Below, piece by piece: positions 8,701 to 36,038 of a stretch of DNA of 38,678 nt. Under the pieces are notes generated by a model. That model was not told where the DNA came from and did no database searches. It saw nothing but the letters and a program-made list of their open reading frames with translations. Source of the DNA: Craspedostauros australis (lineage: Eukaryota); NCBI GenBank assembly GCA_030167865.1, contig JALAGF010002372.1, positions 1 through 38,678 of the forward strand, given 5' to 3'. A program made the position numbers and the translations under genes. How positions within the stretch are numbered: position 1 is the stretch's first letter; every line of letters begins with the position of its first letter.

Positions 8701-9301
8701 CACACCCAAACCGCTGACGCCTATCACCAAGGCCTTGGAGGCCATCATGCGGCGTTGAGCTTCGTGTCCCATCACGTAAAGCTGACGAGAGTAGAGCTTC
8801 TCGTCAACTGCCGTGTGATACGAGCGGAGTTGGAGTATGGTGGAATCACGCGGCGTGTGCGCACACGCGACGAGGCGAAGATCGCAGCAAGCAGTATGTG
8901 ACAGGAAGGCAGGCAAGCAATCAAGCAATTAGAGAAGCAAAGGGAAGCGAAGAAAGACGGAGTCGTTAGCGTTTGATGGGGAGGGCGCGAATCGGAGCGC
9001 ATCTCGTATGTTGCAACCTCTCGTTGCACAGGATGATCTAGCTCCGTTGTGAATGGTTGAAGAAGGGTTTGGATACAGCCTTGAAGCACCATGAACGCGG
9101 AGGAGCGAAGGAGCCTGTAGGACGTGTGCCCGTGATGTTGGCAGGACCGCTGTAGCTGGCGCCGGCACCTGAAAGCAAGATACGGATCATTCGTCCAAAG
9201 CATGGTTGGGAAAACACACACCCCCTCCGCTGTTGGCCTGGCCGGAGATCCTTACCTTCCGCGGTGGCGGTCACCTCCATTGGGGTTGCGGTTTCCGACA
9301 T
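5713..9301 (-). CDS. UBA1: Ubiquitin-activating enzyme E1
   Basis: Exon 1 9301-9256 (MSETATPMEVTATAE), intron 9255-8808 (GTAAG...CAG, phase 1), exon 2 8807-5713. Motifs: VDEKLYSRQLYV, ATP-binding VGAGAIGCE, IEKSNLSRQFLFR, catalytic Cys in SIPVCTLKNFP, FDKD...H, AGRIIPAIATTTA, C-terminal UFD. Confidence 0.97.
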
Positions 9302-11145
9302 GCTGATGGGCTTGGTTCTGATGTTCCTCCTCGGTTCCTTTTTGGATTGGTTGCTCTCAGTTGTGCGTATGGTGCTCTTGTATGACTGCGAGTACGAGTA
9401 CGAGTATGCCGTCGTGACGGGGGGAAGCTGGTTGGATTGTGCTTCGTCTTTGTGTTTTGTGTGCGCTGTGTTGACGATGTCTGGATACTGTGACAGGCGC
9501 AGTTCGTTACGTATCCCAACGCTGTCCTCGTTCGTATTGGGAACGTGTTTTGCTCCCTTCCCACCGCGTGACAGTGTCCCCGCGGCGTGCTTCTTCCCCG
9601 TTCCGTCTGTGTCTCTTTTCCTCTCCATTGTTGCCCTGCGTTGCTGTGAAGCGAAGCGGCATGTTTTGGATTCCATCGTGTTGGTGTTTCGCAGATGTCC
9701 CACACACGGCGAAGAACCCCAACGATCTTTCTCTCATAGCCTGGTACCAACAGGTATCATGGTGAAGGTACTTTTAGTATTGGAACTGGGAATGTGGATA
9801 GTGCCGTGAATGCTATGGAATTATGTGTTTTACCGCTACTTTCGGAAAATCAAATCTACACACACGACTCGAAATAGGTCCTGTTGATCGTAGCGTGGAA
9901 GAACTGAAATAGGGACAATGCACGTACTCCACGACTGGCAAAGTGAAGAGCACTCTAGCTTGTAGGTACGTAGGTAGTACATACACATGACGAAGTATGG
10001 TAGAGCATGGGTACTTGTGCAACTACTCTCCTGTTCAACTATTGGTGGCACACAGCTTGGAAAGCGCAATCTTCTTGCACATTCTGCTGGACTTTAGTTG
10101 GATGGAATGGGGGATGCGGCTTTCCGCATCTCGCTACGAAACTCCAACTCGATGCTCTGCATTGGCATATCTCCTCTCTCTCTCTCTCTCTCTTTCCAGA
10201 GAGAGAAATACCTTCAGGGCAGAGTATAGAGCTTGCTGATCCCTTACTTCGTTGACATCAGCTGCTCAACGTGGACGCGCCTTCATCGGTCACTTTCCAT
10301 TCGTAGCACTTGAGTGGATGTGAGAGGCACCATCTCTGTCCATCAATATGGACCCATGACACCCTCATGCTGGAGCTCGCGTGGTCAACTCCAACGGCAC
10401 GGGCATTTGGTGGTCAGGAGTGTGTGGTCCCTTGGCCTTGGAGGTACTCACCTCTTGTTTCGCAATGTTCCACTGCATTCCTTTCCAGTGCAGAGTGCGC
10501 CTGTCTGGAGAGATTGCTCCAGTACTCAATAGTCGTACCCTATGTCCACTCAGCGCACTGTTGTCATGAGAGTGTTTGAACGATGCATGTATGCATGAAT
10601 AGACTCATGGAAGAGCATCGCGAATCGGGGACCACGTTTCTGTTCTTGTAACGTTAGCACGTCATGAAGTCCACAGTTCACGAGAACAAGCCGCTGGGCA
10701 GGAAGTCACCTATCGCTGTCGCCGATCGCAAACTGTTTGACCGAAAAGCGTGCAATGATGCGTAGAATTTGAGTGCAGAGAGTTGGTCTTATATGTACTA
10801 GTCCTATAGCTCGTACATGTGGTCGGCACATAAAGATGTTGCCACATGTACTTGAGTGTAGAACGGCGAAATGTCGTGCGAGCGATAGGCTCGTTCGCAA
10901 GCATTGTACGGAGACTACGTACTCTACGGCATGGCGTGCATCATGATCTATCCTTGTTCAGTGTGCTGTGTTCGAAAAGGGCTCTCCCAACGCGCGTCGA
11001 GTACATGTTCGTACCATACACGCAGAGGTCCACAGAATAGGATCACTCCGACGCAAGTCTTCGTATTGCCCATTTCGGTTCACTGTGGCGGTTGCGATGT
11101 GTGTTGCCCGGCTTCTACCTGTCGCTTCGTTTAGTTTACAATACT

Positions 11146-12281
11146 CTAATCCTTCTTGTGGATCCCATTTGCGAGGTACATCTTCGTGATACCATTGCTG
11201 GCGATCTCATCCATCTGCTCACAGTATGTTTGGATTTGGTTCGACATGAGCAAGCTCTCCAATCTGCTTGGCGCATCTTCCTCAAGCCAGGATTCCTTCG
11301 ATTTCTTGTTGGCCTTGGACAGTTGTCTGGTGTGCGATTGGAATTTGTACTGCTCGTTGGCAAGATCTTCCACCCAGCCAGCCATCGACTCCATCTGCTT
11401 TTCCAGGAAAGTGTTGGAGGACATGTCCAGCCGCCGCAGGTCCACGTCGACCGGTGGCTTCCAGTCTTGCAGGAGGGCCTCGATGAGGGATGGGTTGGTG
11501 TACTGGATGGGAAGTTCCTCGAATATGCTCTCCGGCGCAATGAACTTGTTGATGCTCGCCTGCTTCATGTTGAGACAGTCATCCGATAACCGCAGCGCCT
11601 TGATAGCGAACGAGCCGTTGGTGGTTTGCAGTGGGTCGTATAGAATGACAACAGAGTTTGGCGACAAGTCCGCCTGATAGGAGAGCTGGGTGTCGAGGAC
11701 GTTGGAGGTGGAGTACACGCCCATGTTCATGGACTGGTACCACCCGACGCAGTTGTTGTCGACGTTGACCTCCCGGAGCATGCGCATCATGTTGAGCTGG
11801 AAATCGTCGTTGGCATCAGTGTCCTCGTCTCCCTTTCCGCTACTGCCGAGGTTAGGAAATGCATGGGTGATCTCCAGCGTTCCGCCCGTGACGGTGAGAC
11901 CAAGCAGTGTACCGCTCGCCGTGTGTGGCAGAGTCTCCTGGCAGTGCTTGACGATTTTCAGGAGGGCCTGTTGTGGAATGTATTGTTATGGTATGTTGTG
12001 TTGTGTCATGTATACGTTGTTGACGGCAGCAGTGGCGGTGCAGGTTCGATATCGTCATTACAATCAGGGTGAGTGGCGAGGGCTGATCAAGCGTGGAGGG
12101 AGCACATCCCACGTCGGAGCTGTTGGCAGAGCAAGCATCGGACATCAAACACCAACAAGCGCAAGCAGCGGGCGGATACTGCCAAACCGATCGAGCAACC
12201 ACCACTTCGACGACTTACGAGGCCCTCGATTTTCACTGCGGAGACTCGCTCCGTCGCGACCACGACTGTCGATGATGCCAT
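11146..12281 (-). CDS. EIF3H: Eukaryotic translation initiation factor 3 subunit H (MPN domain)
   Basis: Exon 1 12281-12219 (MASSTVVVATERVSAVKIEGL), intron 12218-11968 (GTAAGT...CAG), exon 2 11967-11146; 294 aa. Motifs ALLKIVKHC, GTLLGL, LEITHAFP, MMRMLREVNVDNNCVGWYQS, ILYDP, IFEELPI, PSRLESLL are characteristic of eIF3h. Confidence 0.93.
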
Positions 12282-12993: not shown

Positions 12994-15367
12994 ATGTCAG
13001 AAGCCGCACAGCAACAACCACCGGCCGCCGCCGGCGGAGAGGCCGCACCGGCCGCAACGCCCGTGGAGCACCTGGACGAGAACGGCAAGCCGCTATCCAA
13101 GAACGCCCTCAAGAAGAAGCTGAAGGCAGAGAAGGCCGCCAAGGCAAAGGCAGAGAAGGCTGCGAAGGCCGCAGAGAGAGCCGCCAACGCGCCGAAGAAG
13201 GAGAAGAAGGAGGAGGAGATCACCGACCCCAGCCAGTTCAAGGCCAACCGCGAAGCCGCAGTCATACAGATGGAGAAGGACGGAGTCAACCCGTACCCGC
13301 ACAAGTTCCATGTGGACTACCGTCTCCCAGATTTCTGCACCGAGTTCGACTCCAAGACCGCCAAGGGAGAGCAGCTCGAAGAGCAATCCTCCGTGGCAGG
13401 ACGCGTGGTATCCGTTCGTCACCAGGGCAAGCTTTACTTTTACGACCTGCGTGGCGATGGCGCCAAGCTCCAGGTCATGAGCGACCCCAAGACTTACTCC
13501 AGCGAGGAAGAATTCACCAAGATCCACAAGCTCATCAAGCGCGGAGACATCATCGGCGTCAAGGGATTCCCAGGCAAGTCCAAGAAGGGCGAGCTCTCCA
13601 TCTTCCCAACCACCATCACCCTGCTCAGCCCTTGCCTCCACATGCTGCCGTTCGCCAAGGGAGATTCCAGCCTCGGAGGAATCACCAACATGGAGACCAG
13701 ATACCGGCAGAGGTACCTCGATCTCATCGTCAACAATGAGATCCGCGATGTCTTCAGCATCCGATCAGACATCATCCGCGAGGTCCGCAAGTACTTGGAT
13801 GACCGTCACTTTTTGGAGGTCGAGACCCCCATGATGAACATGATCCCAGGTGGCGCCACGGCAAAGCCCTTCATCACCTACCACAACGACCTCAGCATGG
13901 ACCTCTACTTGCGCGTGGCACCAGAGCTCTACCTCAAAATGCTCGTCGTCGGAGGCCTGGACCGCGTGTACGAAATTGGACGCCAGTTCCGCAACGAGGG
14001 AATCGACCTCACGCACAACCCCGAGTTCACGACGCTGGAGTTTTACCAGGCCTACGCCGATTACAACGACCTCATGGACATGTGCGAAGAGCTCATCAGC
14101 GGGCTGGTGAAGCGTGTCACCGGCGGGTTCAAGATCAAGTACTCGCCGAAGCCGGGTATGGATGAGGTGGAGATCGACTTCACTCCGCCCTTCAAGCGCA
14201 TTAGCATGATCGAAGGCATCGAAGAGGCCATGAAGGAGAAGCTGCCGGAGCTCGATGACCCAGAGGTCGACGCAAAGCTCTTGGTGCTGCTCAAGAAGCA
14301 TGGCGTGGAGTGCAGTCCACCGCATACAACCGCTAGGCTGCTTGATGCCTTGGTCGGTGATTTCCTCGAAGACAACATCACGCACCCAACCTTCATCACG
14401 GAACATCCACAGATCATGAGCCCCCTAGCCAAGTACCACAGATCCAAGAAGCATCTCACAGAGCGCTTCGAATTGTTTGCTGCTGGCAGAGAGGTAAGTT
14501 GCCCGTCTTACTTGAACGGCGGCGTCGTATGCATCCATTCGTCTTTTTTCACGTGTGGTCTCGAGACAAATCCAACATGAGACAGATGGAGGGGAAGAGG
14601 AGGGCGCAATCATTACTTTGCATACTTGAATACTGTCGCCCAATGCACTGTCGAGCTTCATTACTTGCCATGGCTCTCTTGTCTTCTGAATACCGGCGCA
14701 ACCCCACCACCAACAACAACATAACTCACGTATGTCTCAAAATGTGAATGGTTGGTCTTCGAAATGTCGCGAAATACTTGCAACGACGGCAACGTTGTCG
14801 GCACCTACTCCCACTACACAGCTCGCCAATGCCTACACCGAGCTGAACAACCCGGTTGTGCAGTACAGGCTCTTCTTGGAGCAAGCCAAGGCCGGAAGCG
14901 CCGGCGACGATGAGGCCATGGTGCTTGATGATTCGTTCGTGACGGCACTGGAGCACGGACTCCCACCCACCGGAGGTTTTGGTCTTGGTATCGACCGTCT
15001 TGCCATGTTCCTCGCCAACAAGAACAACATCAAGGAAGTCCTGCTTTTCCCAGCCATGAAACCAACCGACGAACAGTTGGCGGTCATCGCCCAAAACGCA
15101 CCCAAGAAGGACGCCACAAACACCAATACGGGAAGCAGCGTGAACGTCGATGGTCTTGACGTCACCACGGAGGTCGGGCTCAAGACTTTGGATGGCGCCC
15201 TGTTCGGAAACTCGTTCGTCTCCGGCAACACCCCCACCAAGAGCGATGTCACGTTGCTGGAGGCAGTCAAGAAGCTTCCAGAAGCCACCGTCGCTCCACA
15301 CACCAACGTCACCGCATGGGTGAAGCTCATGGGGATGCTGTCCGAGGAGGCCATCAAGTCGTTGTGA
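12994..15367 (+). CDS. KARS1: Cytosolic class II lysyl-tRNA synthetase with C-terminal GST-like extension
   Basis: Exon 1 12994-14493, intron 14494-14821 (GTAAGT...CAG, phase 0; GRE|LANAY), exon 2 14822-15367. N-terminal [10 protein letters not shown] helix, PYPHKF, OB-fold, RYRQRYLDL, motif 2 [14 protein letters not shown], motif 3 [19 protein letters not shown]. Confidence 0.97.
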
Positions 15368-16124: not shown

Positions 16125-16649
16125 TTATGACTCTGGTGCTGCTGGGGCGGCTCCGGCGTCGCCTCCGAACGCTGCCATGAGGTCGCTCTGGAGGGCCTGG
16201 TACTTCTCCGTGACGGCCTTGTTGATTGTCTGGGAGCCGTTGAGCAGAGCCTCCTGGCACGCTGTGGCGATGTCGTCGGTCGAAGCATCGGCGTACCACT
16301 CATCGTCAAACTGGAACGACTGCGTCTCGTACTCTGGGTTGGGATCCATGGGGTTGGTCACCGGCACGAACTTGAAGGTGGCAACCACCTTCTCGTTCTC
16401 CGACGTTCCGGAGAAATCCATCTGCGCCAGCTCGGTATCAAGCTTTTGCTTCTTCTGGGCCATCTCCTGCGCCTTCTTGAACATGGCGAGCTGGTCCATC
16501 ATTCCTGGCTTCTTCCCCTCCTTGTTGCCGCCGCCACCGAACAGGTTCAGCTCGGTGGAGGACGATGGTGCCGAAACACCACGGTGCTGCACGACTGTGA
16601 ACGCATCCGCGCCAGCCAACAGCAAGCAAGAAATCACCGAAACCTTCAT
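16125..16649 (-). CDS. Plastid-targeted YbaB/EbfC-family protein (STIC2-like)
   Basis: 174 aa. Signal peptide MKVSVISCLLLAGADA followed by F (ASAF-type motif) and a Ser-rich transit peptide ending TELNLFGG. The core KKAQEMAQKKQKLDTELAQMDFSGTSENEKVVATF resembles YbaB/EbfC. Confidence 0.7.
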   Translation of the reverse strand: MKVSVISCLLLAGADAFTVVQHRGVSAPSSSTELNLFGGGGNKEGKKPGMMDQLAMFKKAQEMAQKKQKLDTELAQMDFSGTSENEKVVATFKFVPVTNPMDPNPEYETQSFQFDDEWYADASTDDIATACQEALLNGSQTINKAVTEKYQALQSDLMAAFGGDAGAAPAAPES

Positions 16650-17359
16650 CGTGCACGTTTACGACTATGTTATGTGTGTGGAGTGGAGTGGAGTGGTAAT
16701 ACAGTAGTGTGGAGTAGTTGTGTTGTTGTCTTTTGCTTCTTGGCACCAATACTAAACCGCGCCACGGATATGGTGGGAGCGTCGTGGAGGAGAACGGAGC
16801 AGAGTGACCGAAAGAACTGGTGTGTTGCTTGTGTTCGTGCGTGACACGCAAGAGAATCGAGAGACAAACAGCGGTTCCTCCTTTCGCTTTGATTTGTCGC
16901 GCTATGTCCAACGTGCGAACGCGTGGAACCAATTTTCCCGTTTTGACCACTTTGACTAATTGTGTTCATTCGTGATTTCCTGTGCTCTTGGCCAGGCGTT
17001 GTCTCGTAGTCGTGCTACTACATTAGAATTCATATTCTCTCTATCATGTAGGAACAATGGCATTTTATAATAGAATATTATATTAGTATATCTAGGTCGT
17101 ACGCATGTGGTCCTCCACAGAGCTATCTTCAAGCTATAGTACGAGTGAGACCACAGAATAGTGATTTCCTGAGAATACAAGTGGAAGCAATCCACCTTCT
17201 CTCTTGAGAGCCAGGAAAGTGTAAGAGGTGGAATTGGCTGAGTAAGGCGTTGCACTGGCCGTTTGCCTCCTGGGGCAATCTCTCTGTGTGTCTGGAGAGA
17301 TTATGGCGTGGTGCGCATCGAATAGAATAGACTCTCCAAAGAGACCGAGACAGAGGCAG

Positions 17360-17363
<4 letters not shown>

Positions 17364-17394
<31 letters not shown>
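17364..17394. repeat. (GA)n microsatellite
   Basis: About 15 GA units preceded by GAGGCA units. Confidence 0.9.
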
Positions 17395-17399
<5 letters not shown>

Positions 17400-17659
17400 T
17401 CATCATCGACAGAGCAGGTGCTGGATCGACTTGCATGCGCTCGACCAGTACGTCATGGACCGTAGTACTATACATATTCTCTCTGGAGGAGGTGATCGTA
17501 TTATTCTACGAGTATGTGAGACTGGTTGGGTATTTGGGCTGCAGTGTGATGCATTAGCATTCGGGTGGCACCAGGTACATAGGGTGGAAGTACTCTACTC
17601 TACGGGTCATGTTTTAGAGTATTACCTTGGATGTCACGTCCGAATCCTCGTACCGCGCT

Positions 17660-20016
17660 CTACATCGCAACGAGCAAACTCATGAGCAATGGCTTCGCAA
17701 GGTAAGCGTGCTCTGCCTTCTTCCCAGAATCCTCCAACCTGGCTTCGCGCTCCGTCGCTTTCGCAACAGCCACCAGCAGGCCGCTGTGCTTGGCCAGGAG
17801 GGGACGGTTGGAGAATTCCGTGGCAAGACGTTCGATGGCACGGACGGCGGAGTCTCTTGTCTCCTCCATCTTGGCACCCTCCAAGGACGCCCCTGCAACG
17901 AGCGCGTTCAACACTGACTTGTTGCACATGATCTTGCGGTTGCTGCTTTCGTTCGTCAGATGCATGATGGCGCGGGTGGCATTATCTCTGTCCTTGTCAT
18001 CCGAGCCGCGATCGACGCAGATGTCCACAAGGGTGTCCAACACTCCCGGGTGCTGCGCCATCCTTCGCCTGTTCTCGGGATCTCGTGCCTTCACGCGAAG
18101 GACCGCCGAGACGCTATTGGGGACGGGGCTCAGCGAGGCCACCACCAAGGCGTCCATCAGCGTGTCGTAGCATTCCATCCCGATGGAGATGCTCGCCGCC
18201 AGCTTCGTGAGGGCCATCGAGGCCCGGGTCTGCACCTCGGAGTTGTCATCCTTCGTTGCCACGATGGCCAACGAATCGAGCAACCCCTTGTACATTCCCA
18301 TCTGCTCCGCCGTTTCGTCGCAGGCGAGGTTGGTGAGCGCACCAGATGCCCGCCTCCTGCCTTTGTCGTTCGTGTCGGCGGTGAGCGACTTCTTCAGCGC
18401 CTCGAGGACTATGCCGTCCTTGAACTGGATCAACGCAGGACGGTTTTCTTTCGCGAAGGCCAGGTTTTGCAGAGCTGTGATTGCGGACTCCCGCGTGGAC
18501 GGGCTCTTTTCCAGCAGGATGAGCTTCACCAGGATCCCAAGCAGCTTTTCATTTCGCGCCATCTCGATCTGATTGGCAGGCGCGGATGCCAGATCCATCA
18601 GAGACAGGGCTGCGTATTCCCTCGCCACATCGCAAAGATCCAGGTGGGCGATACGTAGGAGGCTGTCCATGAAGCCGTCTTGCTCGATCATGAGGGTCTT
18701 GTTCTCTTCGCAATTGACCAGATTGGCGATGATGCGAATCCTCGCCACGCGGCACTCCGGGTTCAAAATGGACGTCGCAACTCGGGTAAGGGCTTCGAGC
18801 ATCCCCTGGTGTCTGGCAAGATTCACTCGCAGCTCGTTCACTCTCGATATGTACAGCAGCGTCTTCGTAATGTTCAGGATGCTGACGTCCGCATGCCTCA
18901 TGTTCCCTGCCTCGCAGCGCTCCAGGAGTCTCAACAGCAGCGGTATCATCACGGATCCCGACTCATCGAACGCAACATGGACAAATCTTGTCTGCGCCCG
19001 GAACACCATCTCTATCGCCGCACAAATCATTCGAATTTCGTCGTCGTCATTGGTCATGCTGAGGATCTTGGACAACACCCGCGCAGCCCCGTTCTGCAAT
19101 TCAATGTTATGCTTGTACTCGTCGGCGTGGTCAAACTCTCCGCATGCATTTGTGATCGCGATGATTCGCCGTTCGTGTCCGTTTGCCCGATGCAGATCTG
19201 TTTCCCGTCGGTCAAGTGAGCATGGCGTACCAATATAGTAGAATACACGGAGGAGCAAGGTTTGGCAACGCCATTGCCATCGTTGTCAGTATGAAGCAAG
19301 GATGATCGGAGGGCATGAGAAGCAGGCGAACAGACCGATATTGGTGAGCACTACGCATGTCTAGCATATCGCAACTGCATCCAGACATTCCTCCAACCGT
19401 CGCAAGCGTTGCTGTGGGAGAACGTACCTTCGATCACCTTTCTTGCTGTTTTGACGTGTCGTTGCGGAGTGTCCGCGTAGTGCTTGGAGTCCGCTGTTGA
19501 TTCCTGCCTGTTGTTTCTACGCGTGCTTTGCGTTGACTTTGGCACGTCCAGCCTTTCATGAACATCGCGACCATTCGCGCTTCCTGAGCTCTCCATCATG
19601 TCCGCATCCGTCGCCGCACGCCTGGATCCGGTGCCCCGCGCACCGCGGTGTTGAGATGATGTCGACGAGAGGTTCATTGAGAAACCATGATAGTGACGAT
19701 GGACCTCAGGTGTGTGTGGTTGTCTCCTTTGGGACCCACCCTGGCGTCTCGCATCGTGCGATCCAGAACGACTCGATTGCTGCGATCGGGATCTGTGCCG
19801 ACCCATGCTTGGTGATGCTGCCTTCGATCTGCTGCTGCCACCCAGCAGAAATCCTTTCTTGTGTCCTCGGCTGTTGCCGGGGTTACTGCTATTCGTGGTC
19901 CACTCGCTTCCTGTCGAGGGCGACGGTGGGCCACGAGATGGACGGTTGGTCGGTATGCGGTTGGAGCGCGACGAAGACTGTGTTCGTCTTCTTTGCGATT
20001 GGGAGGGCTGCACCAT
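17660..20016 (-). CDS. Armadillo-repeat protein with Ser/Arg-rich disordered N-terminus, function unknown
   Basis: Exon 1 20016-19428 (first ATG, MVQPSQ), intron 19427-19198 (GTACGT...CAG, phase 1; IE|DLH), exon 2 19197-17660; about 708 aa. Repeated ARM-type motifs: RESAITALQNLA, RRASGALTNLA, RDNATRAIMHLT. Confidence 0.8.
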
Positions 20017-21223: not shown

Positions 21224-24200
21224 TCACTCCTGCGCCATAAGTCTCTGCTTGGTGTGCTCCCAAATGCAGATTGCTCCAGAAACGTGGACGTTGAGACTCC
21301 GGAGCATTCCCAGCTGCGGGATCTCAACGCACACATCGACGAGGTGGAGGAACTCCACGGGAATCCCCTCCTTCTCCTTGCCAAGGAGAAGCACCGTCGG
21401 TGATGACGAGAACTGCAGGTTCGTCAGCGGCACACTTGATGACGTTTGCTCAAGCCCGACGATGGTGTATCCCTTCTTCTTGTGCGTGATCAACCAGCGC
21501 GCCAAATTCTGTAAAGTTCACGGGGGACGATGTTGACAGTTGTGAGGGAATCGTATGTTTGGCCATCTCACACTTGTGCCCATTAGCGTGCCAGCATTGA
21601 GCACAGTGCCTGCACTCCAGTTGCTACTAATAATCAAGAGCCCAGCAGTGCTCCACTGATCTGCGGTTGTTTCCGGTGCAATTGACGCCACCACATACCA
21701 CACATCATGCAATGCATCCGCAATTCACGCGCAGCAAAGCAATCGACACTCCACAGCGTGGCACCACTTACTTCCTCCTTGCACTCCCTGATATCGATCC
21801 AATCTCCGGCACCAACGCTCAGGGCCTTGAAATTGTCCATCTTTGTGACATTCAAGTCTGGGATGACGAGGCAGTCCGCTGCAAAGATCTCTGCCGTTCT
21901 TGCCAGGCCTCCGAGATTGGGTATCTTGTCAACGAGAGAGGCACACACGACGAGATCCTGCTTGCGTCGGCTCATCACGTTCTGAACTTTCTTCTCCCTC
22001 AAATCTTCCAGCTGCAAATTCAGCGCATCTAACGGCGTGATTTTGCGCTGCACCTGGACCTGCGTCGCGTCGTCACTGATGATGGAATCGGCCGGCACTC
22101 GCAGCCTCTTTTCTGTCTCCTGTAGCTTCTTCCACGAAGGCAGGGACGCCTCGTCTTGGTGAGCCTCCGCATACACTTGCTGCAAGCACTCCTTGATACA
22201 GTCCATCGCACTCAGAGGATCAACTTCGTTCGTTTCATCCAGCGACATGTTCAAGATCCCTTCAAGTGTGCACGCATCCTCGATGCGGTAGGCACGGAAG
22301 AACTTCGTCTGCTTCTTCCTGAGCCTCGCCATTTCGCGGTTTTCCTTGAGGTACGCGAAGATGCTGCGGACGAGCCCCCATTCGGTGATTGTGTCACTAC
22401 TTTGACCACCGTCACTTCCCACGCTGGAAGCGTTCGCATCAGAGGCATCGAAGCTTTGCACCAGCTCAAAGACAAGCAACTGAGCGATTGCTCTGCTGAA
22501 CCCTTGGGTGCTGCTAAGCCAAGGGATTACCATCCGAAGGATCTCTTGCCGGGTTTCGATGGCCTGCGGCCCCTCCCAGAAAACGGTCAACTTGTATCGA
22601 CCAACAATCCAATTCCCACCGATGATCATCTATTGTGTGGGGATATTCGTTTCGCGCATGTATGGTGTAGTATGGTGCAGTATGTGTGGTATTGCGTACG
22701 TGTGAGTATCGAAGTACCAAAGTTCCGTGGAATTGGAGCACGCACAAGAGACAGCAAGTGAAGGAATGGTGCAAGTAGTGCATGCGGACAGAAGAAGAAG
22801 AAACCGATAGCAAATCATGCAACCAGATATGAGTCGAGTCATAGTATTTGGAGGCATTGTTGCATGTGGAACAGAAGACAACGAGCAAGGCATCTGTGAT
22901 GATGTGTTTGCACCGGCAACGCAGAGCGAGGGCGCGGGACGATCAAACTATTGCGTCAATCGCAGGGGCAAAAAAAGAGAGCAGGGCAGCCCGTGTGCAC
23001 AAACGCGGATCGCATCATCGATTGACAAGGTGTGACGTACCAGTGAGGACACGTGCTGGAGCGAGAGATTGTTGTTCTTCAGCGCTTTCATCCATTCTTC
23101 GATGAAGACGGATTGAAATCGTACTCCGCAGGATATGATGAAAATCTCCACGAAATATCGCACCTGCCCGTACAATGGTTCGCCGAGCGCAACAAATGCA
23201 CTTATACAGATCTGAGCGGCATTGGCGGCTGTAATGAACTTGGACAGCACGCAGATCGCCTGCCATGCTCGTATCTTCTTGCAATATAGCGGTGCACCCT
23301 TCATCAAGAGGGAGCCATGGCGGACAGGCTGGGGTTTGGCCTTCTCCAATAGCTGCTGGATGATTGGGAGCACTAATTTGTGTGTCACCTCGTCGCACCC
23401 AGCTTCATTTCCTTCTGCAGGTTCTGGAAGCTTCGAGAGGAACACCAGAGCGAAGGTGCGCGCCAGGCTCTGTTCGTTGGCGGCCCTGACTTCGCGGTCC
23501 GTCGGGATACCATCGAGGATCTTCTCGACGCTCTGGTTTGATGCGCACTCGTCAATCTCAGATTCCTTGTGAAGCAAGAGGTCAACGATGTCATCGCAGT
23601 ACGGGATCGCATTTCGCCCGGTTTGAGCGCCGGACTGTTCAGCATCACCATGCAGCCACGCGCCGACGATGTGCGTCAGAGCCACGCGCGTGAGGTGAGG
23701 CTTCAACGTACTGGCCCGGGTCACGATTTCACGAAATGCTTTGCGCACCGGCAGTTCGAAGTCTGGATCATGACTAAGGTACTCAAACTCTTGACGCAGG
23801 ATATGCTCCTGGAAGAGCAGCATGCAAATCTCGTTCAGCATGTAAGTGGAATCGTAGCTGTCCTTGCAGTCATCCATCGCGCTGAACAAGGCGTTCACGA
23901 GGTTTGTCATTGTGGTGGCATAATTTGACGAGTCCTTCGCGCTCTCGCTGTTGCCCGTGGATAGGCTTGAGATCATCTGCTTCCCACATGAAAGTATGCA
24001 TTGGAACAGTGGGACCAAAGCTTCGGCTGGCGTTGCTTGGACCTCCTCCACGATCGTATCCATGAGACTCTCGATGAGCATGTCGATGCCAGCTTTCTCG
24101 CTGTCCTCCAGCCGTTCTGTTGAATTCAGCACGCACGGGATTAGATGGGACAGGGAACCCCACTTGGAGTACTGCAGAAGCGTCCGTACTCGTTTCAACC

Positions 24201-28541: not shown

Positions 28542-30105
28542 TTAGGTCAGCACGCCGTCGCTGGGGCGACTCTCACGGTTCCTACTCTTTGACCGGCGGC
28601 TGCGCGATCCTCCGCGGCTCGATCTCTTGCCGTCTTCTCGGCTCTTTTTCTTCTTCGACTGCCTGTACTTGCGCATCATCATGGCTCTACGTCTGCGACG
28701 GTTGGTGAAGAGGATGCCGGTGAAGAGGATGAGAGAGGTGAGCAAGAAGAGGCCGCCGACGGCGTACTTCAGCTTCGTCACCCATGACTTCTGACTTCCA
28801 AACCCGCGGTTGCTGAAGAAGCTGCCAGTGGGACCAGCCGAAAAGCCGGAGCTGGAGCTCCGTGAGTTGAAGACAGCGCTGTCCTGGCACAGTGAATGGT
28901 CGTACGAGCTACACGGCTCTGAGTAGTACACCAGCTTGTGGATGAGGGAGTCATCCACAGCGTCACCGCCAGTGTACTGCACGTTGCATTTCTGGTAGTT
29001 GTCCATCTTCTTGTTGAGATTGCTAAGGGAGTTGTACACGGTTCCGGTGCGAGAATTGCAGTACTCATCGCTGAAGGTCCCGATGACGAAATCGTTGCCG
29101 TTGCAGTCAAGTCCGAGGTATCCGTTGTCACCTTGCCCGCACACGGGGAGTTCGTCGACTGCGTATCCATCATCGTCGTCGTTGTTGAATGCGCTGTTTC
29201 CATCGTACTGTTGCAGATAGTAGATGAATTCTGGCAGTCCTGCTGATGTTACGTACTGTGATTGCGGAGAATGCGTTGTGTTGTGCATCCGCGTTACGTT
29301 ACGTTACGGTACGTTACGTTGGGTGATGTTGCGTTAAGTGACGTATCGCAGCATTGTATAGGATGGGGCGTTTGTCAGTCATTGCAATGCGTTCGAAAGA
29401 AACGAGACGTCGGAGCAGCGTGCGGAAGGTGCTGAGTGAGTGCCTGTGTTTGGGCATGCGCAACATCGAAGGTGATGGTCTGTGCAAATTGGGATGGCTG
29501 CGTTGGATCCTCAGGTGGCAACCAAGAAAACAGCCGACGCAGGACGCAGGACAAAGCGCGATCCGCGATGCACCTAAGCATCATGGACGAGAATGGAACG
29601 CGAAATCTCTTTTTCTGTTGCCGGTTGTGCATCCCGAATCCAAGCCAAGGCGATGATTACATCGACGGCGACTTCGACACCAACATCAACACCTGAAGCA
29701 ACGTGAATGACGTACCGTCGATCGGAAGTTGCCGCTGTTGCATCCGCTGTTGCTGTACACCGAAAACACCACCTGCGGTCTCTTGCAGTTCGCCATCATG
29801 TACCAATTCGTGGTGCCGTCCTCGCTCTCATCCTGCAGGCAGCCGACCTCTTCGTTGTCCTCCACATCGGCCCAGACGCAGCCTTCGACCTTCATGGAGA
29901 GGCCCGAGTCGGAGTACAGCCAATCCTGCGCGAAGACGTTGCCGTAGTTCGATTCCACGACTTCGTTGTCGCTGTTGCCGTTGCCCCAGCCTCCCGCAAC
30001 TCCAAGCGGCAATGCGATACCGACCATCATGGCCAGCATGGCGCTCCTTGATGCGCAACGTATCATCTTCATCGTCGTCGTCGTCGTTGCCGTCGTCACC
30101 TTCAT
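28542..30105 (-). CDS. Cys-rich type I membrane protein, silicanin-like (putative silica deposition vesicle or cell-surface protein)
   Basis: Exon 1 30105-29716 (start uncertain among several Met), intron 29715-29256 (GTACGT...CAG, phase 0; RST|YVT), exon 2 29255-28542; about 367 aa. Signal peptide, acidic N/D-rich lumenal part with 10 Cys (YLGLDC...FVIGTFSDEYC), one TM helix (YAVGGLFLLTSLILFTGILF), very basic R/K/S tail. The CDS is solid; the family call is tentative. Confidence 0.65.
29292..29320. repeat. (CGTTA)n / (TAACG)n intronic microsatellite
   Basis: cgttacgttacgttacggtacgttacgtt near the 3' end of the intron. Confidence 0.85.
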
Positions 30106-31000
30106 CCTTGCCTTCGTGCTACTGTTTGGTGTTGCTGCTCTCAGTTGCACTTTGCCCGTCTGATGTTGTCGGCTTCTTTGCCTATGTCGCTTGAGAGGAT
30201 CGTGCACAGAGCAAGAGAGTGTCGGAATAGCTGATCCTGCTGCGCGGCCGCGTCCCGTTCGTACACTTGGCTTCGGTGGGGCGAGATGATCGTCGCAACG
30301 TCACGTTCGAGTATGGCATGTACAGGTCCCAGTGAGGCTGCCAGCGATGCTTTGCGAATAGCTCACCCTTGTGTTCCAGGAGAGTGCGAGTTTAGCTCGT
30401 ATAGTGGGGAGAGTGTCGAACACGGCGGTGAGTTGTTCTCTTGTTGTGTTGCTGGGCGATTTCGTGGTTGCTTTGACGTTGTTTCTCCCGACACCGAATC
30501 GCTTCTCTCTCTTTGTCTCTCCCTGACAGGCACACACACACCTGCATGCACCAACAAACACAAACACAGAGAGAGAGAAGGAAATGGAGCTCGAACACGA
30601 GCAGACAAACAAAAGGAGGGGCAAAAGAGAGCCAGACGATCATTCGTTTCGGCGAAATCTCAATGGATGCTGGAGCTGGAATACAAAATATTCATGCATT
30701 AATATATTTATACTCACAGTCCGGTTGGCGCCTGCAATGGTGTCTGGCATCTAACTGTTTCAAACAGCCTGACACCAACAGACTGACACAAGAACATGTG
30801 TGTCCCATGAGCAGTTCCGCGCCGAGGCTGGCGGACGTCATGTGCATCCGACAATCGGCGATCCAACTGTTGGCTGCTCACAATTCCGTTCTTCCGTTAG
30901 GCTCCTCCTGCTTTCCCACATGAAGATACCATCGATGGCAGTGATGGAGGAGCATACGATCGGTTGTGTTCAGCGCCACTTCCGTGATGTGCGAGAAGAA

Positions 31001-31080
31001 CGAATGGATGAACGAACGAACGAACGAACGGACGACGACAATGAACGAATGAATGAATGAATTAATCAATCAATCAATCA
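31001..31080. repeat. Compound (GAAC)/(GAAT)/(CAAT) microsatellite
   Basis: gaacgaacgaacgaacgaac...gaatgaatgaatgaat...aatcaatcaatcaatc. Confidence 0.8.
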
Positions 31081-31815
31081 GAGGAGGAGCAGAGTGCAAT
31101 GGCTCTCTCCGGTCCACTCTCCCAGCACTCTGCGCGATGCTGCGATCCGCTCTCCTCTGTCCGTTTTCCGACCAATTGCTCTCCATTCTTCTTCTCGTCA
31201 GCGTACCCCAACGACAGCACCTACTCTCTTGCAGGTGGATATTTCCAAGGCCCAAGTTTGTGACAATCAACGACAGCCGCGGTGAGAAGGACATCACGAC
31301 CATTCCTGCCATCCGCACACAAGGACATCGCGAGGCGAACCAACATCAGATCGCAGAGCACCAGAAGGCGAAGAACTGGAACCACTCAGGATTGCCGTCT
31401 CCCCCCCCAGGCAACGTTCCGCTCCTGCTTATACCCGGGCTCCTGCCAGAACGCGACGACCAGTCCACACCATCGCCAGCACCACCAATACCAGCGCGAA
31501 CGCTGTCGCTGCCGTCATCGTTGTTGTCGTCGATCGGAAATTCGTTCACATCTCTTTGCAGTGCAGAACCGTGAAGTGCGACAGCGCAACCGTGGAGGCA
31601 TACGCACACGTGCACGCATTCACTGACTCTCCATCGACCAAACGGAGCTGCGATCACTCGAAGGACCGGAGACGACTCGTCGAAACGAACCAGGCAGTTC
31701 CAACCCTGATTGTAGTGTTGCTGGCTTGCAGACAGTACTCGAATCGAGACCTGCTCAATCGAAGCGGCTCAGTTGGCGTTTTCACGTTGCGAACTTGAAC
31801 TTCGTCCAACTGAAG

Positions 31816-34800
31816 ATGAAAGGAACATGGGCCTTGCTGCCGGTGCTGGTCGCCTCTTGCTCAGCGGCAGCCTCATACGGGCAAGGCGATAAGAGATTGG
31901 GAGGCATCCGTGAACAACTGGTACATCGCGGAGATGCGACGAAAGCAACAGGAGAAACTGCCGCTATCGCCACAGCGTCTATGTCAGCTGAACTGGTGAG
32001 GGACGATGCGGAGCGAGATTTGGCGGCAGAAAGCACTGAGACGACAGAATTCTGGAATTCATTTGTGGAGGGACGCCTCAGCATGGAGGAAACTCCAGGG
32101 CCAAGCACAGCTCCGAGCACCAACCCAAGTACGACACCAAGTGTAACTCCAAGCAATCGTCCAAGCGCTGTACCGAGCGGAACACCGAGTAATCATCCAA
32201 GCGTCTCGCCAAGCACGAATCCCAGCTCGGCGCCCAGCACCAAACCAAGTGTGGCACCAAGCACAACTCCAAGCGCTGTACCGAGCGGAACACCGAGTAA
32301 TCATCCAAGCGTCTCGCCAAGCACGAACCCCAGTTCGGTGCCCAGCACCAAACCAAGTGTGGCACCAAGCACAACTCCAAGTGCTGTACCGAGCGGAACC
32401 CCGAGTTTCCAACCAAGCGCAAATCCAAGCGGAACGCCAAGTAGATTGCCCAGCGCGATGCCGAGCTCTGATCCATCCAGCACGCCAAGTGAAACTGCTT
32501 TGGAACCAACAGCCACACCCACCAGAGACGAGATAGGAAACATCACGGGGATGCCTTCGCATCTGCCATCTACGGTGCCTACCTCCACCGATTCACAGAT
32601 GCCATCCGTGGTACCATCCGCCCAACCATCTCAGGATCCGTCAGAGAACCCATCAGCAGTCCCATCTGAAACACCATCGATCACTGACGCAACAGAATTT
32701 CCCACGGTCAACGTGACGACACAGGTGACAGACACGCCGTCCATCAAATCGTCGGATACACCCTCTGCTACACCCTCGTCCACACCGTCGATCACGCCCT
32801 CTGCTGCACCTTCATCGGTGCCATCCGGTGAACCGTCTGGGGCACCGACGCAGGCTTCGCAGCGCCCGTCGTCGGAACCCTCGAGCAGCCCAACCGCGGC
32901 ACCCCAGGTACCATCAAACGTTCCGTCCGAAATGCCTTCGTTTGCGCCTGTACCGGATCAAACACCGAGTCCGACCACTCAACCGTCGGCTCAACCATCC
33001 TTGCGCCCATCTGCGTCACCCTCAACCGAACCGTCAGGACATCCGTCCACCTCGCCATCCGGGCACCCGTCTCAGAATCCCAGCACGATGCCGAGTGCAT
33101 CTCCGTCGGCACACCCATCGCAGAACCCAAGCGCGATTCCAAGTTCGTCGCCGTCGTTCGTGCCATCTGCACCGCCAAGTCTCACTGACAGTGTGTCGCC
33201 GTCAGGAAGCCCCTCCGTGACGCCATCTGCTTTCCCGAGTTCCAATCCCAGCGCAGTTCCCAGCCCAAGTCCCAGCTCATCTCCTTCCCAGGCGCCCGTC
33301 ACAGCATCTCCGACGTTCATGCCTGTTCCAGACGCAACCCCCAGGCCCACGATGCAACCGAGCGAAAGTCCCAGCTCGATTCCCAGCATGGCGCCATCAA
33401 GCACACCGACCTCGGCGCCAACGTCCAATCCAACGGCGAGTCCCACAAGCGTGCCAACATCGCAGCCAACCAGCACGCCAACGTCCAACCCAACATCTAG
33501 TCCGACAAGTGCACCGACGTCGAGTCCCACCTTGTCACCCTCTAGCCAACCAAGCAGGGACCCAACAAGCAATCCGACCTCAGCACCAACCAGCTCACCC
33601 ACGACTGCACCAACAAGCAACCCAACTTCGAGTCCCACATCGGTACCGTCTGTCCAACTGAGCAGCGCTCCAACAAGCAATCCGACTTCAGCGCCAACCA
33701 GCTCACCCACAAGTGCACCCACGAGCAACCCAACTTCGGGTCCAACCAGCGCTCCAACAAGCAATCCGACCTCAGCGCCAACCAGCTCACCCACAAGTGC
33801 GCCCACGAGCAACCCAACCAGCAACCCAACTTCGAGTCCCACATCGGTACCGTCTGTCCAACTAAGCAGCGCTCCAACAAGCAATCCGACTTCAGCGCCA
33901 ACCAGCTCGCCCACAAGTGCACCCACGAGCAACCCGACTTCGACTCCAACCAGCGCGCCAACGCCGCAGCCAACAAGCAATCCGACTTCAGCGCCAACCA
34001 GCTCACCCACAAGTGCACCCACGAGCAACCCGACTTCGACTCCAACCAGCAACCCCACAAGCAATCCCACCTCAGCGCCAACCAGCTCGCCCACAAGTGC
34101 ACCCACGAGCAACCCGACTTCGACTCCAACCAGCAACCCCACAAGCGCACCCACGAGCCAACCGACATCACGTCCAACCAGTGCACCGACCAGCCAACCC
34201 ACTTCAAGCCCCACAATACGGCCGTCCAGCCAACCGTCTCGTCAGCCAACCGCTATCCCAACTTCGATCCCGACGCAGCTTCCATCATCCACGCCTACCA
34301 CGCTGCCGGTCCGAGACCGGTTGATTCCGTTTGTGCTGCAGGGTGGCAACGAATTCAATGACCCAGACTCTTACCAATCTAGGGCGTTGGAGCAGACCAG
34401 ACTTCAGAATGGGATCCAGAACACCCAGGACTTCGAACTTGTGGCTTTCTACACGCTGAATTGCATCTTTCAGGCCACAAACGCCCAGGACAACCCTCTC
34501 GACGAGGTGGTCGACCCTCTCGGGTGGATCACGAGCTTCGGCTGGGAGGACACAGTGTTCAACTACTGTATATGGTTTGGTGTCACTTGTGACTTTGACG
34601 GTTTCGTGACGAGGATCAAACTTGACGATAACTTCCTGACCGGAACATGGCCCAGAGAGATCGTGTTGCTTTCGGTAGGCGGACCGTTCTCGCTCCCCGA
34701 TCCAACCCCCGGAGGCAAGCTCGAAGCCGTCGACTTGTTCGGAAACAGGGGACTGTACAGCATTGATCACTCCTGGATCACCGACATGGGCCCCAACTTC

Positions 34801-36038
34801 AGTAAGTGGAAATCAGCGCTCCCAATTTGCATCCGAACGTGATCCAGAAGCGGCCCTAGCCCCACGCAATGATACGGCTCTGCTCACGTTGTACGGCTGG
34901 TCTTGAACTCAACAGCGCGCCACTATCTCACGATCTTTCGGCCCACTCTTTCGTAAACCATTCGCACATCCCAACATCAATGTCAACGTCGATTGCGGCT
35001 CGCCGTGTCGCACCCAAACACACACGGAACCAACAACAGGAGAAGCATTCTTCGGATCGACTTCGTTCACTGGCCTCCTTCCAAAGCTACCATCAGGCTT
35101 GACACAACTCGACGCATTCAACAGTCGTATCACCGGAGGGTTCACCAACAGCAACTTCGAGGACGCGACATCGCTGCTTTTTCTGAGGCTCACCGGAACG
35201 TCGCTGAACTCGACGATTCCCATCACGTTGTCCACGCTGGCGAGTCTCAGGTTCTTCTACATCCAAGATGCCTTCGTGGAAACAGACTTCGCCTTCCTTC
35301 CTGGGATGGATGCATTGGAGGAATTCTGGATTGACAGCAACAATCTCGGCGGAAATCTTCCAGTCGCCATCACCGAACTTCCATCCTTCATCTCCTTCTC
35401 GATCACGTCCTGCCAAATCGTTGGCCCTCTCGATCCTGCCTTCGGTTCGTTCGCGGACCTCAGCTTCAAAAATCTGTTTCTGTACGACAATAAGCTTTCA
35501 GGGATCATCCCAACTGAGATGGGTGGCAACAGCCGAGTCGAGCGCTACCGTTTCGAGGGCAACGACTTCACAGGTTCGATGCCGGAGTCGGTGAGCAACT
35601 TGCGAGCCATCCGAGAGCTCGGAGTGGATTGTGCGGAGGTTGTGGTAAGTTTCAACGCGCGGGGGAGCTGCGACGGCAGGAGTCTCCTCCATCTCCGGAC
35701 TGTCAACTGGAGATGTCTGCGGATCATTTTTTGTCGGCGTGACTTGTGTTTTGCAGTTCGCGCAAGCACTCTCTGCCTGTCTCGATGTTATCAAATCGTT
35801 TGAAGTACGATGCTCTGCTCGGTTCCAACATACCTGCCCGTACGTTCCACCCAAACCTCTGGCTCACAGCAACTGCAACTGATGCATTCTTTAACTCCCC
35901 CATGAATCCAAACGGTGGCGACTATCTCGCCGCTGTGGATAACCGCACTATACTTCACTCCCAATGAACTCGCATCGACAGTGTCCGTTCTGCACGTGCT
36001 GTGACTTGGCAGAATGTGCTGCGCTGTCCACACTCTAG
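31816..36038 (+). CDS. Secreted protein with RXL propeptide, long PTS/PS mucin-like stalk and C-terminal leucine-rich-repeat domain
   Basis: Exon 1 31816-34801, intron 34802-35039 (GTAAGT...CAG, phase 1), exon 2 35040-35644, intron 35645-35981 (GTAAGT...CAG, phase 0), exon 3 35982-36038 (CPFCTCCDLAECAALSTL*); about 1215 aa. Signal peptide MKGTWALLPVLVASCSA, LRR N-cap CIWFGVTC, plant-type LRRs (LDDNFLTGTWP, NNLGGNLP, LYDNKLSGIIPTEMG), C-cap DC..V.C..CTCC. Confidence 0.88.
32095..34305 (+). repeat. Coding tandem repeat array (12-nt P-S/T-x-x unit) with 108-nt and 204-nt higher-order duplications
   Basis: Near-identical 108-nt units start at 32161, 32269 and 32377 (partial). The PTSSPTSVPSVQLSSAPTSN block is repeated at 33621 and 33825. 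Confidence 0.9.

Follow-up and report, generated by a model that had tools for sequence, protein, structure and literature searches.

AG-free zones of 110-262 nt precede the 3' splice sites of eight introns in a diatom contig and suggest distant branch points

Introduction

To our knowledge, distant branch points have been described only in exceptional cases, tied to regulated exons in animals and to special hairpins in yeast. Structured introns of this kind, with distant branch points, were reportedly described in Saccharomyces cerevisiae by Meyer and colleagues in 2011, and an excerpt of Gahura et al. (2011, PMC3239191) likewise presents structured distant-branch-point introns in this yeast. 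In human, the excerpted account of Gooding et al. (2006, PMC1431707) lists 838 of 67,334 introns with an AG exclusion zone of at least 100 nt and 165 with one of at least 150 nt, and links introns with distant branch points to regulated alternative exons. Among diatoms, the portion available of a study of Phaeodactylum introns (PMC5859163) leaves branch points and AG-free zones unmentioned, and in open-access full text we found no papers on diatom branch points or AG-free zones.

Here we describe nine introns from a single 38.7-kb window, by which we mean the whole stretch of 38,678 nt of Craspedostauros australis DNA that was analysed. With the human distant-branch exons, as far as the excerpt cited above describes them, these introns share the exclusion of AG, an AG in human being tolerated when it lies no more than about 12-15 nt from the branch. 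The layout is rare there, however, whereas here it is found in eight of nine introns, including those of the housekeeping genes for UBA1, eIF3h and lysyl-tRNA synthetase, and the spacer here is C/A-rich, without the long U-rich tract with regulator sites. With the structured introns of S. cerevisiae they would share a distance between branch and acceptor far beyond the norm together with first-AG logic. Low intron density and canonical GT-AG boundaries are shared with Phaeodactylum, in which the consulted part of PMC5859163 gives 0.7 introns per gene; introns average 142 bp there and 330 nt here, which bears out the original prediction that these introns are longer than those of model diatoms.

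Results

Nine GT-AG introns of 230-460 nt, amounting to 2,966 nt, were located in the window (Table 1), which holds about 13 genes. All coordinates and lengths match those of the original prediction. The donors are GTAAGT in five introns, GTACGT in three and GTAAGG in one. U12-type donors follow the extended consensus (A/G)TATCC, and minor introns are ruled out by the donors found. The nine are best explained as U2-type GT-AG introns of the ordinary kind whose 3' layout is unusual. No further introns were found in the SYO1-like, Utp12-like and TPR genes or in a small gene at 16128-16658, all of which are single open frames; the non-coding sequence of the window contains two more putative candidates that combine a donor with a zone.

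Table 1. Positions of the nine introns, their AG-free zones and the candidate branch A of each; distances in brackets are counted from the acceptor unless marked otherwise.
Intron	Position	Strand	Length (nt)	Phase	AG-free zone	Candidate branch A	Remarks
UBA1	8808..9255	-	448	1	9002-8810 (193 nt)	8966 in CGCTAACG (159 nt from exon)	Pyrimidine-rich tract follows
eIF3h	11968..12218	-	251	0	12082-11970 (113 nt)	12070, CACTCACC (103 nt)	
Lysyl-tRNA synthetase (KARS)	14494..14821	+	328	0	14656-14819 (164 nt)	14728, AACTCACG (94 nt), or 14660, CTTCAT (162 nt)	
ARM-repeat gene	19198..19427	-	230	1	19350-19200 (151 nt)	19345, CTCAC (148 nt)	Model only; proximal CTCAC also at 19217 (20 nt)
TARBP1-like, intron 1	22630..23040	-	411	0	22893-22632 (262 nt)	22703, CTCAC (74 nt), 22759 (130 nt) or 22830 (201 nt)	
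TARBP1-like, intron 2	21509..21771	-	263	0	21566-21511 (56 nt)	21543, CTCAC (35 nt)	Conventional exception
Cys-rich membrane protein gene ('silicanin-like')	29256..29715	-	460	0	29431-29258 (174 nt)	CTCAC at 29437; alternatively CTGAC at 29375, GACTGACA (120 nt)	Boundary AG begins 5 nt after CTCAC
PT-repeat/LRR gene, intron 1	34802..35039	+	238	1	34916-35037 (122 nt)	34930, ATCTCACG (110 nt)	Model only
PT-repeat/LRR gene, intron 2	35645..35981	+	337	0	35870-35979 (110 nt)	CTCAC at 35866, or CTGAT at 35882 (100 nt)	Boundary AG begins 2 nt after CTCAC; proximal CTTCAC at 25 nt

Seven of the nine junctions have independent support, and those of the ARM-repeat gene and of LRR intron 1 are models drawn from open-reading-frame logic only. 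Contigs of run X1, which was placed against positions 16400-36399 and whose being RNA is a guess, omit exactly three introns: TARBP1 intron 2 (21509-21771, with a 59-nt anchor), the silicanin-like intron (29256-29715, 33-nt anchor) and LRR intron 2, where a single 954-nt contig passes from 35223-35643 to 35981-36399, its record showing no gap. Over the positions compared, no X1 contig spans the ARM intron, TARBP1 intron 1 or LRR intron 1, which carries no weight for or against these three. For UBA1, transcript-like contigs of relatives (L001, L002) have N-termini, M..ATTE-VDEKLY, that equal the spliced model. The Pfam tRNA-synt_2 profile runs continuously across the exons of the KARS gene (profile positions 1-234 in exon 1 and 232-307 in exon 2), and the sequence ..LSLQHxSSL|MIxGGN.. 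that spans TARBP1 intron 1 is contiguous, with no additional residue, in 19 of 19 long homologues. The eIF3h junction we infer only from the frame and from a JAB profile that begins at its position 8 at the start of exon 2. In the ARM-repeat gene, an alternative start at a Met within exon 2 is possible. The name 'silicanin-like' is a label carried over from the original prediction only; the product has no Pfam match, and the Atlas returned unnamed clusters only, mostly from Bacillariophyta (scores 0.91-0.94).

We then examined the sequence before each acceptor. All nine AG-free zone lengths of the original prediction were reproduced exactly, and in eight of the introns a zone of at least 100 nt (110-262 nt) lies directly 5' of the acceptor AG. 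Median lengths are 151 nt for the terminal AG-free interval and 13 nt (maximum 86) for the 63 other AG-to-AG intervals of the same introns (Mann-Whitney p = 1e-6). An AG-free run of at least 100 nt precedes 8 of the 9 acceptor AGs but 22 of the 4,691 other AGs of the window (Fisher p = 9e-18). Over the final 100 nt of all nine introns combined, AG was observed twice against 41 expected and GA 34 times against 41, with the remaining 14 dinucleotides at 0.6-1.7 of expectation. The AG-free zones, 1,345 nt in all, contain no AG and 45 GA, where 51 AG would be expected from the base composition of the zones themselves; upstream of the zones, 1,603 nt hold 72 AG and 83 GA, a normal AG density. AG is also mildly low within the introns' 5' parts (63 observed versus 90 expected).

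These counts bear on whether G-poor composition alone could produce the zones, a check proposed together with the original prediction. Both the GA control and shuffling (5,000 shuffles per intron) contradict this: G-poor composition does not explain the zones, because GA stays near expectation while AG is lost. Per-intron p values were 0.0002-0.017 for mononucleotide and 0.0002-0.117 for dinucleotide shuffles, giving Fisher-combined values of 1.7e-19 and 7.7e-10, respectively; by the dinucleotide shuffle alone, TARBP1 intron 1 (p = 0.117), eIF3h (0.074) and TARBP1 intron 2 (0.068) are not significant. Long AG-free runs are not exclusive to introns. Over both strands of the window there are 30 runs of at least 100 nt, where a geometric model predicts about 9, and 10 of at least 150 nt, five of which lie away from any modelled intron, those that were placed being antisense to coding sequence. 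The geometric model is thus too liberal for this window and was therefore not used for significance. The zones exceed chance, and the exclusion is specific to AG.

Branch-like motifs were then related to these zones. Altogether 13 motifs of the form CT[ACG]AC occur in the nine introns, and in 7 of 9 introns at least one falls in the interval from -8 to +40 nt around the zone's 5' edge (mean of 2.06 under random placement, P = 0.00065, an optimistic value because this interval was chosen after the data had been inspected). At 15-45 nt from the acceptor, by comparison, such motifs are not enriched (2 of 9 introns, null 1.35). The yTnAy motif is absent from the 70 nt nearest the acceptor in six introns, and in UBA1 from the nearest 113 nt. 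A simple score combining motif and pyrimidine content places the best unit, in the order of Table 1, at 159, 103, 94, 148, 74, 35, 182, 110 and 116 nt. The far-upstream branch-like motifs that had been predicted were recovered at 159 nt (UBA1), 103 nt (eIF3h), 94 nt (KARS), 110 nt (LRR intron 1) and 120 nt (silicanin-like). In two introns, silicanin-like and LRR intron 2, the last AG before the acceptor begins 5 or 2 nt past a CTCAC; the excerpt of Gooding et al. (2006, PMC1431707) indicates that an AG less than 12-15 nt from the branch is bypassed or tolerated, and since both AGs lie in this range, they count in favour of a branch at the zone edge. The motif at the 5' edge of the zone is the putative branch in use.

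In line with the original prediction, the 3' ends are C/A-rich rather than U-rich, with base frequencies in the last 40 nt of 0.31-0.32 for A, 0.34-0.39 for C, 0.12-0.16 for G and 0.17-0.19 for T. Pyrimidine content after the distal motifs is only moderate (0.61-0.66 over the opening 60 nt of each zone), and in the tract after the candidate motif it is 0.87 in UBA1 and 0.5-0.7 in the other introns. Predicted folding is weaker in the zone than in the upstream part in all nine introns (-0.143 versus -0.254 kcal/nt, with a window background of -0.258). Against 60 dinucleotide shuffles, the zones have a mean MFE z of -0.26 (range +1.32 to -3.41), LRR intron 2 being the sole zone with an unusually stable predicted fold (z = -3.4). 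In the yeast introns a hairpin shortens the distance and may hide decoy AGs, whereas the zones here hold no AG to hide and, LRR intron 2 apart, are no more structured than shuffles. A yeast-type hairpin bridging branch and acceptor is ruled out for eight of the nine zones, whose predicted folding does not rise above that of shuffles; the zones are C/A-rich, G-poor and weakly folding, and the yeast solution is inapplicable here.

Finally, we compared the UBA1 intron with its orthologues in other diatom-like metagenome contigs, control introns of other eukaryotes being automatic calls that serve as context only and that include some doubtful GC donors and near-duplicates (L025/L026, L005/L006). 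AG-free zones of 251, 148 and 137 nt are present in 3 of 7 loci. The part of the original prediction that made the long zones a lineage-specific trait is therefore weakened, although the zones themselves are real here: because these other loci carry them too, the trait is not peculiar to one lineage. The intron of L038, the closest genomic relative, has a conventional layout with a 36-nt zone, CTCAC at 21 nt and a U-rich tract. L013 combines its 137-nt zone with a perfect CTAAC 36 nt from the acceptor, so that a long zone need not imply a branch far upstream; likewise, L008 has a 251-nt zone yet a CTCAT at 26 nt, and in L004 a CTAAT at 52 nt accompanies a 97-nt zone. CTCAC or CTAAC also lies near the zone boundary in L038, L015, L017 and L010, an arrangement that favours reading the motif as the branch sequence, with the zone as its proxy. 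The proposal that introns expanded mainly between the branch and the 3' splice site is weakened as well: in the one comparison at hand, with L038, the distance from motif to acceptor is larger in the window (about 159 versus 21 nt), and so is that from donor to motif (about 289 versus about 116 nt).

Discussion

Routine use of distant branch points is the best reading of these introns, and we consider it moderately probable, the putative branches being read from the sequences of nine introns. A branch point of the CT(C/G/A)AC type would lie about 70-180 nt 5' of the acceptor, where 18-40 nt is usual. Once the first catalytic step is complete, the spliceosome would pick the first usable AG 3' of the branch; any AG between branch and acceptor would then be a wrong acceptor and hence be removed by selection, leaving an AG-free zone. 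The AG-specific exclusion, the normal AG density upstream and the motifs at the 5' edge of the zones all speak for the distant branch points originally predicted, and what is weakened is their restriction to one lineage. Points that weigh against distant branching are the conventional layout of L038, the proximal motifs that coexist with long zones in L013 and L008, the consensus-like motifs at conventional distance in three window introns, the moderate pyrimidine content after the distal motifs and the mildly low AG count in the introns' 5' parts. The sharp return of AG at the zone boundary fits a boundary set by the branch better than a diffuse decoy effect. By extension, the distant-branch layout may be typical of the genome.

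Branch points could instead be conventional in position (15-45 nt) and degenerate in sequence, with AG avoided widely on other grounds. If, for example, an early, U2AF35-like step recognised every AG of an intron whose acceptor has no U-rich tract, upstream AGs would compete as decoys. The long zones above good proximal motifs in L013 and L004 fit this account, as do the consensus-like motifs at conventional distance in three window introns (ARM at 20 nt, TARBP1 intron 2 at 35 nt and LRR intron 2 at 25 nt) and the somewhat low AG count in the 5' parts of introns; relaxed TnA motifs, moreover, occur nearly everywhere, so that a degenerate proximal branch is compatible with the sequence. We nevertheless think it rather unlikely, since six of the nine introns lack yTnAy in their last 70 nt, strong motifs are enriched at the 5' edge of the zone and not at 15-45 nt, and AG density is abruptly normal just 5' of the zone. 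It is also conceivable that each intron uses several branch points distributed over its 3' half, in which case the zone would mark the most upstream one, maybe a minor one, and nearer ones would do much of the splicing. Most introns carry two to four yTnAy inside the zone, and the ARM intron has such motifs at 148, 119, 95, 89, 20 and 15 nt; several branch points per human intron are documented, according to an excerpt of PMC5959240. We found no counter-evidence to this account, which is a softer form of routine distant branching and still needs some of it; taken by itself, we judge it unlikely.

It seems very improbable that the zones follow as a by-product from a composition poor in G and rich in C and A, or that they arose by chance among so few introns. 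The excess of runs of at least 100 nt across the window (30 versus about 9), the position of half of the ten longest away from modelled introns and the three non-significant dinucleotide shuffles (TARBP1 intron 1, eIF3h and TARBP1 intron 2) lean that way, but GA, made of the same bases as AG, is not depleted (34 versus 2 in the last 100 nt, 45 versus 0 in the zones), the combined shuffle p is 7.7e-10 or lower, and long runs set apart 8 of 9 acceptor AGs from all but 22 of 4,691 others. Similar lengths and uniform strong donors might also suggest copies of one mobile 'introner' family that inherited the zone with the family sequence. For this window such a family is contradicted by all-against-all blastn of the nine introns, whose best match spans 33 nt at 82% identity (E = 0.005), and the rest of the window yielded no further copy of any of them; we regard this origin as extremely improbable.

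Returning to distant branching, we offer a wider proposal more tentatively, as a possibility that we would not yet call probable: in this diatom, and variably across diatoms, the default layout may be a branch, an open, C/A-rich, AG-free spacer of 70-250 nt and the acceptor, the second step routinely spanning distances that are rare elsewhere. If this reading is true, other eukaryotes span such distances only in rare introns that are specially regulated or folded, and lineage-specific changes would be expected in the machinery that selects the acceptor, for which a U-rich tract beside the AG would be unneeded. As a default in housekeeping introns, the layout would offer a natural system in which to test first-AG finding over 100-250 nt. 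In diatom gene prediction, the acceptor would be the first AG past a long AG-free stretch that starts at CT(C/G/A)AC. For variant interpretation, the mutational target would take in the entire 3' half of every intron, where a wrong acceptor would arise from each newly formed AG.

Intron models and gene content

Reading the junctions on both strands gave nine GT-AG introns (see table), exactly where the original prediction implied them, with GTAAGT (5), GTAAGG (1) or GTACGT (3) donors and CAG (8) or TAG (1) acceptors. Contigs of X1, a public sequencing run tentatively taken to be RNA, match the window without differences and lack precisely TARBP1 intron 2, the silicanin-like intron and LRR intron 2. 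For UBA1, 80 metagenome loci were retrieved with the exon 2 protein; in the closest relatives, L001 and L002 (78% and 77% amino-acid identity), the transcript-like contigs start M..ATTE and pass directly to VDEKLYSRQLYV, the same N-terminal reading as the spliced window model. When the middle TARBP1 exon was compared with a representative protein library, LSLQHxSSL and MIxGGN, which flank intron 1, were contiguous with zero added residues in 19/19 aligned long homologues from the best 40 of 150 listed. In KARS (lysyl-tRNA synthetase), the tRNA-synt_2 profile ends at 234 in exon 1 and restarts at 232 in exon 2. The eIF3h junction is based on frame and domain logic, and those of the ARM gene, whose start could alternatively fall within its second exon, and of LRR intron 1 have open-frame logic as their only basis.

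This 38.7-kb nuclear eukaryotic stretch (G+C ~54%) holds ~13 genes, with Pfam matches to UBA1, eIF3h, a class II lysyl-tRNA synthetase, an ARM-repeat protein, a PT-repeat/LRR protein, a large protein with a terminal SpoU methylase domain (TARBP1-like), and SYO1-like, Utp12-like and TPR genes. A Pfam search returned no family for the silicanin-like Cys-rich membrane protein; its closest Atlas clusters are unnamed and chiefly from Bacillariophyta, which is the sole taxonomic pointer obtained and a weak one. The LRR gene contains a frame of >1,000 codons without a stop, nearly all Pro/Ser/Thr repeats (Pfam PT repeat, E = 2.9e-40), which continues into the LRR domain, with a Cys-rich C-terminal tail encoded 3' of LRR intron 2; the product has the look of a mucin-like LRR protein of the cell surface. 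A small single-exon gene with a signal-like N-terminus and a Gly/Lys-rich linker lies under the deepest X1 contig (depth 327) within the part of the window compared with X1.

Introns, AG-free runs and other features of the window, and orthologous UBA1 introns of seven diatom-like contigs. Motif entries for window introns are the top motif-plus-pyrimidine unit by a crude score.
Feature	Position	Strand	Length (nt)	AG-free zone (nt)	Branch-like motif (nt from acceptor)
UBA1 intron	8808-9255	-	448	193	159
eIF3h intron	11968-12218	-	251	113	103
KARS intron	14494-14821	+	328	164	94
ARM intron	19198-19427	-	230	151	148
TARBP1 intron 1	22630-23040	-	411	262	74
TARBP1 intron 2	21509-21771	-	263	56	35
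Silicanin-like intron	29256-29715	-	460	174	182
LRR intron 1	34802-35039	+	238	122	110
LRR intron 2	35645-35981	+	337	110	116
Candidate 5'-UTR intron	27459-27837	-			
Candidate non-coding or UTR intron	9966-10199	+			
Non-intron AG-free run	1562-1742	+			
Non-intron AG-free run	26929-27135	+			
Non-intron AG-free run	28551-28708	+			
Non-intron AG-free run	13316-13162	-			
Non-intron AG-free run	13071-12893	-			
Pro/Ser/Thr-repeat frame	31627-34839	+			
Small single-exon gene	16128-16658	-			
(AACGT)n-like microsatellite	29293-29330	-			
UBA1 intron, L038			137	36	CTCAC 21, then U-rich tract
UBA1 intron, L017			273	58	CTCAC 67, immediately ahead of boundary AG
UBA1 intron, L015			113	64	CTAAC 59
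UBA1 intron, L004			120	97	
UBA1 intron, L013			144	137	CTAAC 36
UBA1 intron, L010			271	148	CTCAC 118
UBA1 intron, L008			287	251	

AG-free zones precede the acceptors

Counted back from each acceptor AG to the next AG upstream, all nine zones had the lengths given in the original prediction. Over their 1,345 nt they contain no AG and 45 GA, where their own base composition (G-poor, 0.12-0.19) predicts 51 AG; the 1,603 nt of intron upstream contain the two dinucleotides similarly often (72 AG, 83 GA). Counted in fixed windows to avoid circularity, AG is found twice and GA 34 times in the final 100 nt of the nine introns, where 41 of each would be expected, and all remaining dinucleotides are within a factor of ~1.7 of expectation. 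The terminal AG-free interval has a median of 151 nt, compared with 13 nt (maximum 86) for the 63 other intervals of the same introns (p = 1e-6). The zones of the nine introns exceed those of shuffled sequence (5,000 shuffles of each intron interior; combined p = 1.7e-19 mononucleotide, 7.7e-10 dinucleotide-preserving), although under the stricter test TARBP1 intron 1 (0.117), eIF3h (0.074) and TARBP1 intron 2 (0.068) fall short singly because they contain few AGs overall. The observation of AG-free zones is thus right and far above chance, and composition alone is ruled out as their cause, since GA is kept while AG is absent and the shuffles are significant.

Long AG-free runs also occur elsewhere in the window, which makes a simple geometric model too liberal: both strands of the window carry 30 runs of at least 100 nt, eight of them intron zones, and ten of at least 150 nt, five intronic and five (155-207 nt) at no modelled intron. 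The latter, antisense to coding sequence where placed, show strong local variation of dinucleotide content in this genome. A run of at least 100 nt nevertheless precedes 8/9 acceptor AGs vs 22/4,691 other AGs (p = 9e-18).

Two further GTACGT donors were seen. One (27459-27837) has TCTTCTGCAG 379 nt on, preceded by a 114-nt AG-free run, and lies ~195 nt 5' of the probable start codon of the TARBP1-like gene; it may be a 5'-UTR intron built like those modelled. The other (9966-10199), with CTCTTTCCAG 234 nt on and a 100-nt AG-free run before it, lies in a 1.3-kb stretch without a long open frame and could be intronic to a non-coding or UTR transcript.

The pattern is the AG exclusion zone that Gooding et al. 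2006 (PMC1431707) describe as the mark of rare human distant-branch-point exons, often alternatively spliced, with zones of at least 100 nt in 838 of 67,334 introns and of at least 150 nt in 165; here, in contrast, such zones occur in 8/9 introns, including those of housekeeping genes. Intron density resembles that given for Phaeodactylum in PMC5859163 (0.7 per gene), whereas mean length is 330 nt vs 142 bp, in keeping with the expectation that model diatom introns are shorter. Searches of open-access full text yielded nothing on diatom branch points or AG-free zones.

The spacer between zone edge and acceptor

The last 40 nt of the introns are C/A-rich and U-poor (T 0.17-0.19), and the pyrimidine maximum (0.61-0.66) lies 100-160 nt upstream and just past the zone start. 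Seven of the nine acceptors are ACAG, CA/AC dinucleotides abound in the 20-40 nt before the acceptors, and AC occurs 80 times in the last 60 nt against 54 expected; this combination may be a specific acceptor-proximal signal replacing the absent U-rich tract. Predicted folding is weaker in the zones than in the upstream parts of all nine introns (-0.143 vs -0.254 kcal/nt; window background -0.258) and no stronger than in dinucleotide shuffles (mean z = -0.26), except in LRR intron 2 (-3.4). Apart from that intron, a hairpin that spans the branch-to-acceptor distance, as in yeast, is therefore ruled out, and the spacer looks like open RNA in these predictions. Comparison of the nine introns with one another found no sequence in common, and an introner family was rejected as their source. 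The microsatellite in the silicanin-like intron is touched by an X1 contig of depth 132 (the gene's own being 11-33), with a back-joint and 12 unmatched letters, probably a repeat common to another transcript.

Branch-point candidates and orthologous introns

The branch-like motifs quoted in the original prediction were all found, at 159, 103, 94, 110 and 120 nt from the acceptor. The strict motif, CT[ACG]AC, has 13 occurrences across the nine introns, and in seven introns it lies between -8 and +40 nt relative to the 5' edge of the zone (random placement mean 2.06; P = 0.00065, optimistic in that this interval was picked after the positions were seen). The last AG before the acceptor begins 5 nt (silicanin-like) and 2 nt (LRR intron 2) past a CTCAC; as an AG within 12-15 nt of the branch is tolerated, being too near (PMC1431707), these two could be tolerated.

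Proximal branch points, with AG avoided for another reason, seem unlikely to us. They would fit the UBA1 intron of L013, where a proximal CTAAC accompanies a long zone; in the window, the motif yTnAy is absent within 70 nt of the acceptor in 6/9 introns (present at 20 nt in ARM, 35 nt in TARBP1 intron 2 and 25 nt in LRR intron 2), and CT[ACG]AC falls at 15-45 nt in 2/9 (null 1.35). Several branch points per intron, a softer version of the distant-branch reading, we hold to be quite improbable. Routine distant branch points appear, with some reserve, the best mechanism for the window introns: a distant branch point would be followed by an open, C/A-rich spacer free of AG, across which the first AG is selected.

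Neither restriction of the trait to a single lineage nor growth of the introns mainly between branch point and acceptor was established. Long zones also occur in UBA1 of other diatom-like contigs (L013, L010, L008). Seven such genomic contigs share the phase-1 intron before VDEKLY; the L008 zone has 20 GA and no AG vs 10 expected, and the L010 junction is confirmed by L011, which equals L010 minus exactly 270 nt. The two contigs are 99-100% identical across ~5.8 kb apart from this intron (L010:1734-2003), and L011 would be a long spliced transcript or else reflect precise loss of the intron, as a presence/absence polymorphism within a natural population of diatoms. Among the other UBA1 introns (automatic, unverified calls; 13 loci, 28 rows, some near-duplicates), the 13 of at least 200 nt, from loci with at most 56% protein identity to the query, carry zones between 15 and 95 nt long, and zones of at least 100 nt appear only in L007 (70% identity; 104 of 145 nt and 118 of 149 nt). 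The seven-contig comparison thus suggests that CTCAC and CTAAC serve as the branch sequence in this diatom-like group, tending to mark the zone edge, and shows that long zones are not confined to the window's own lineage.
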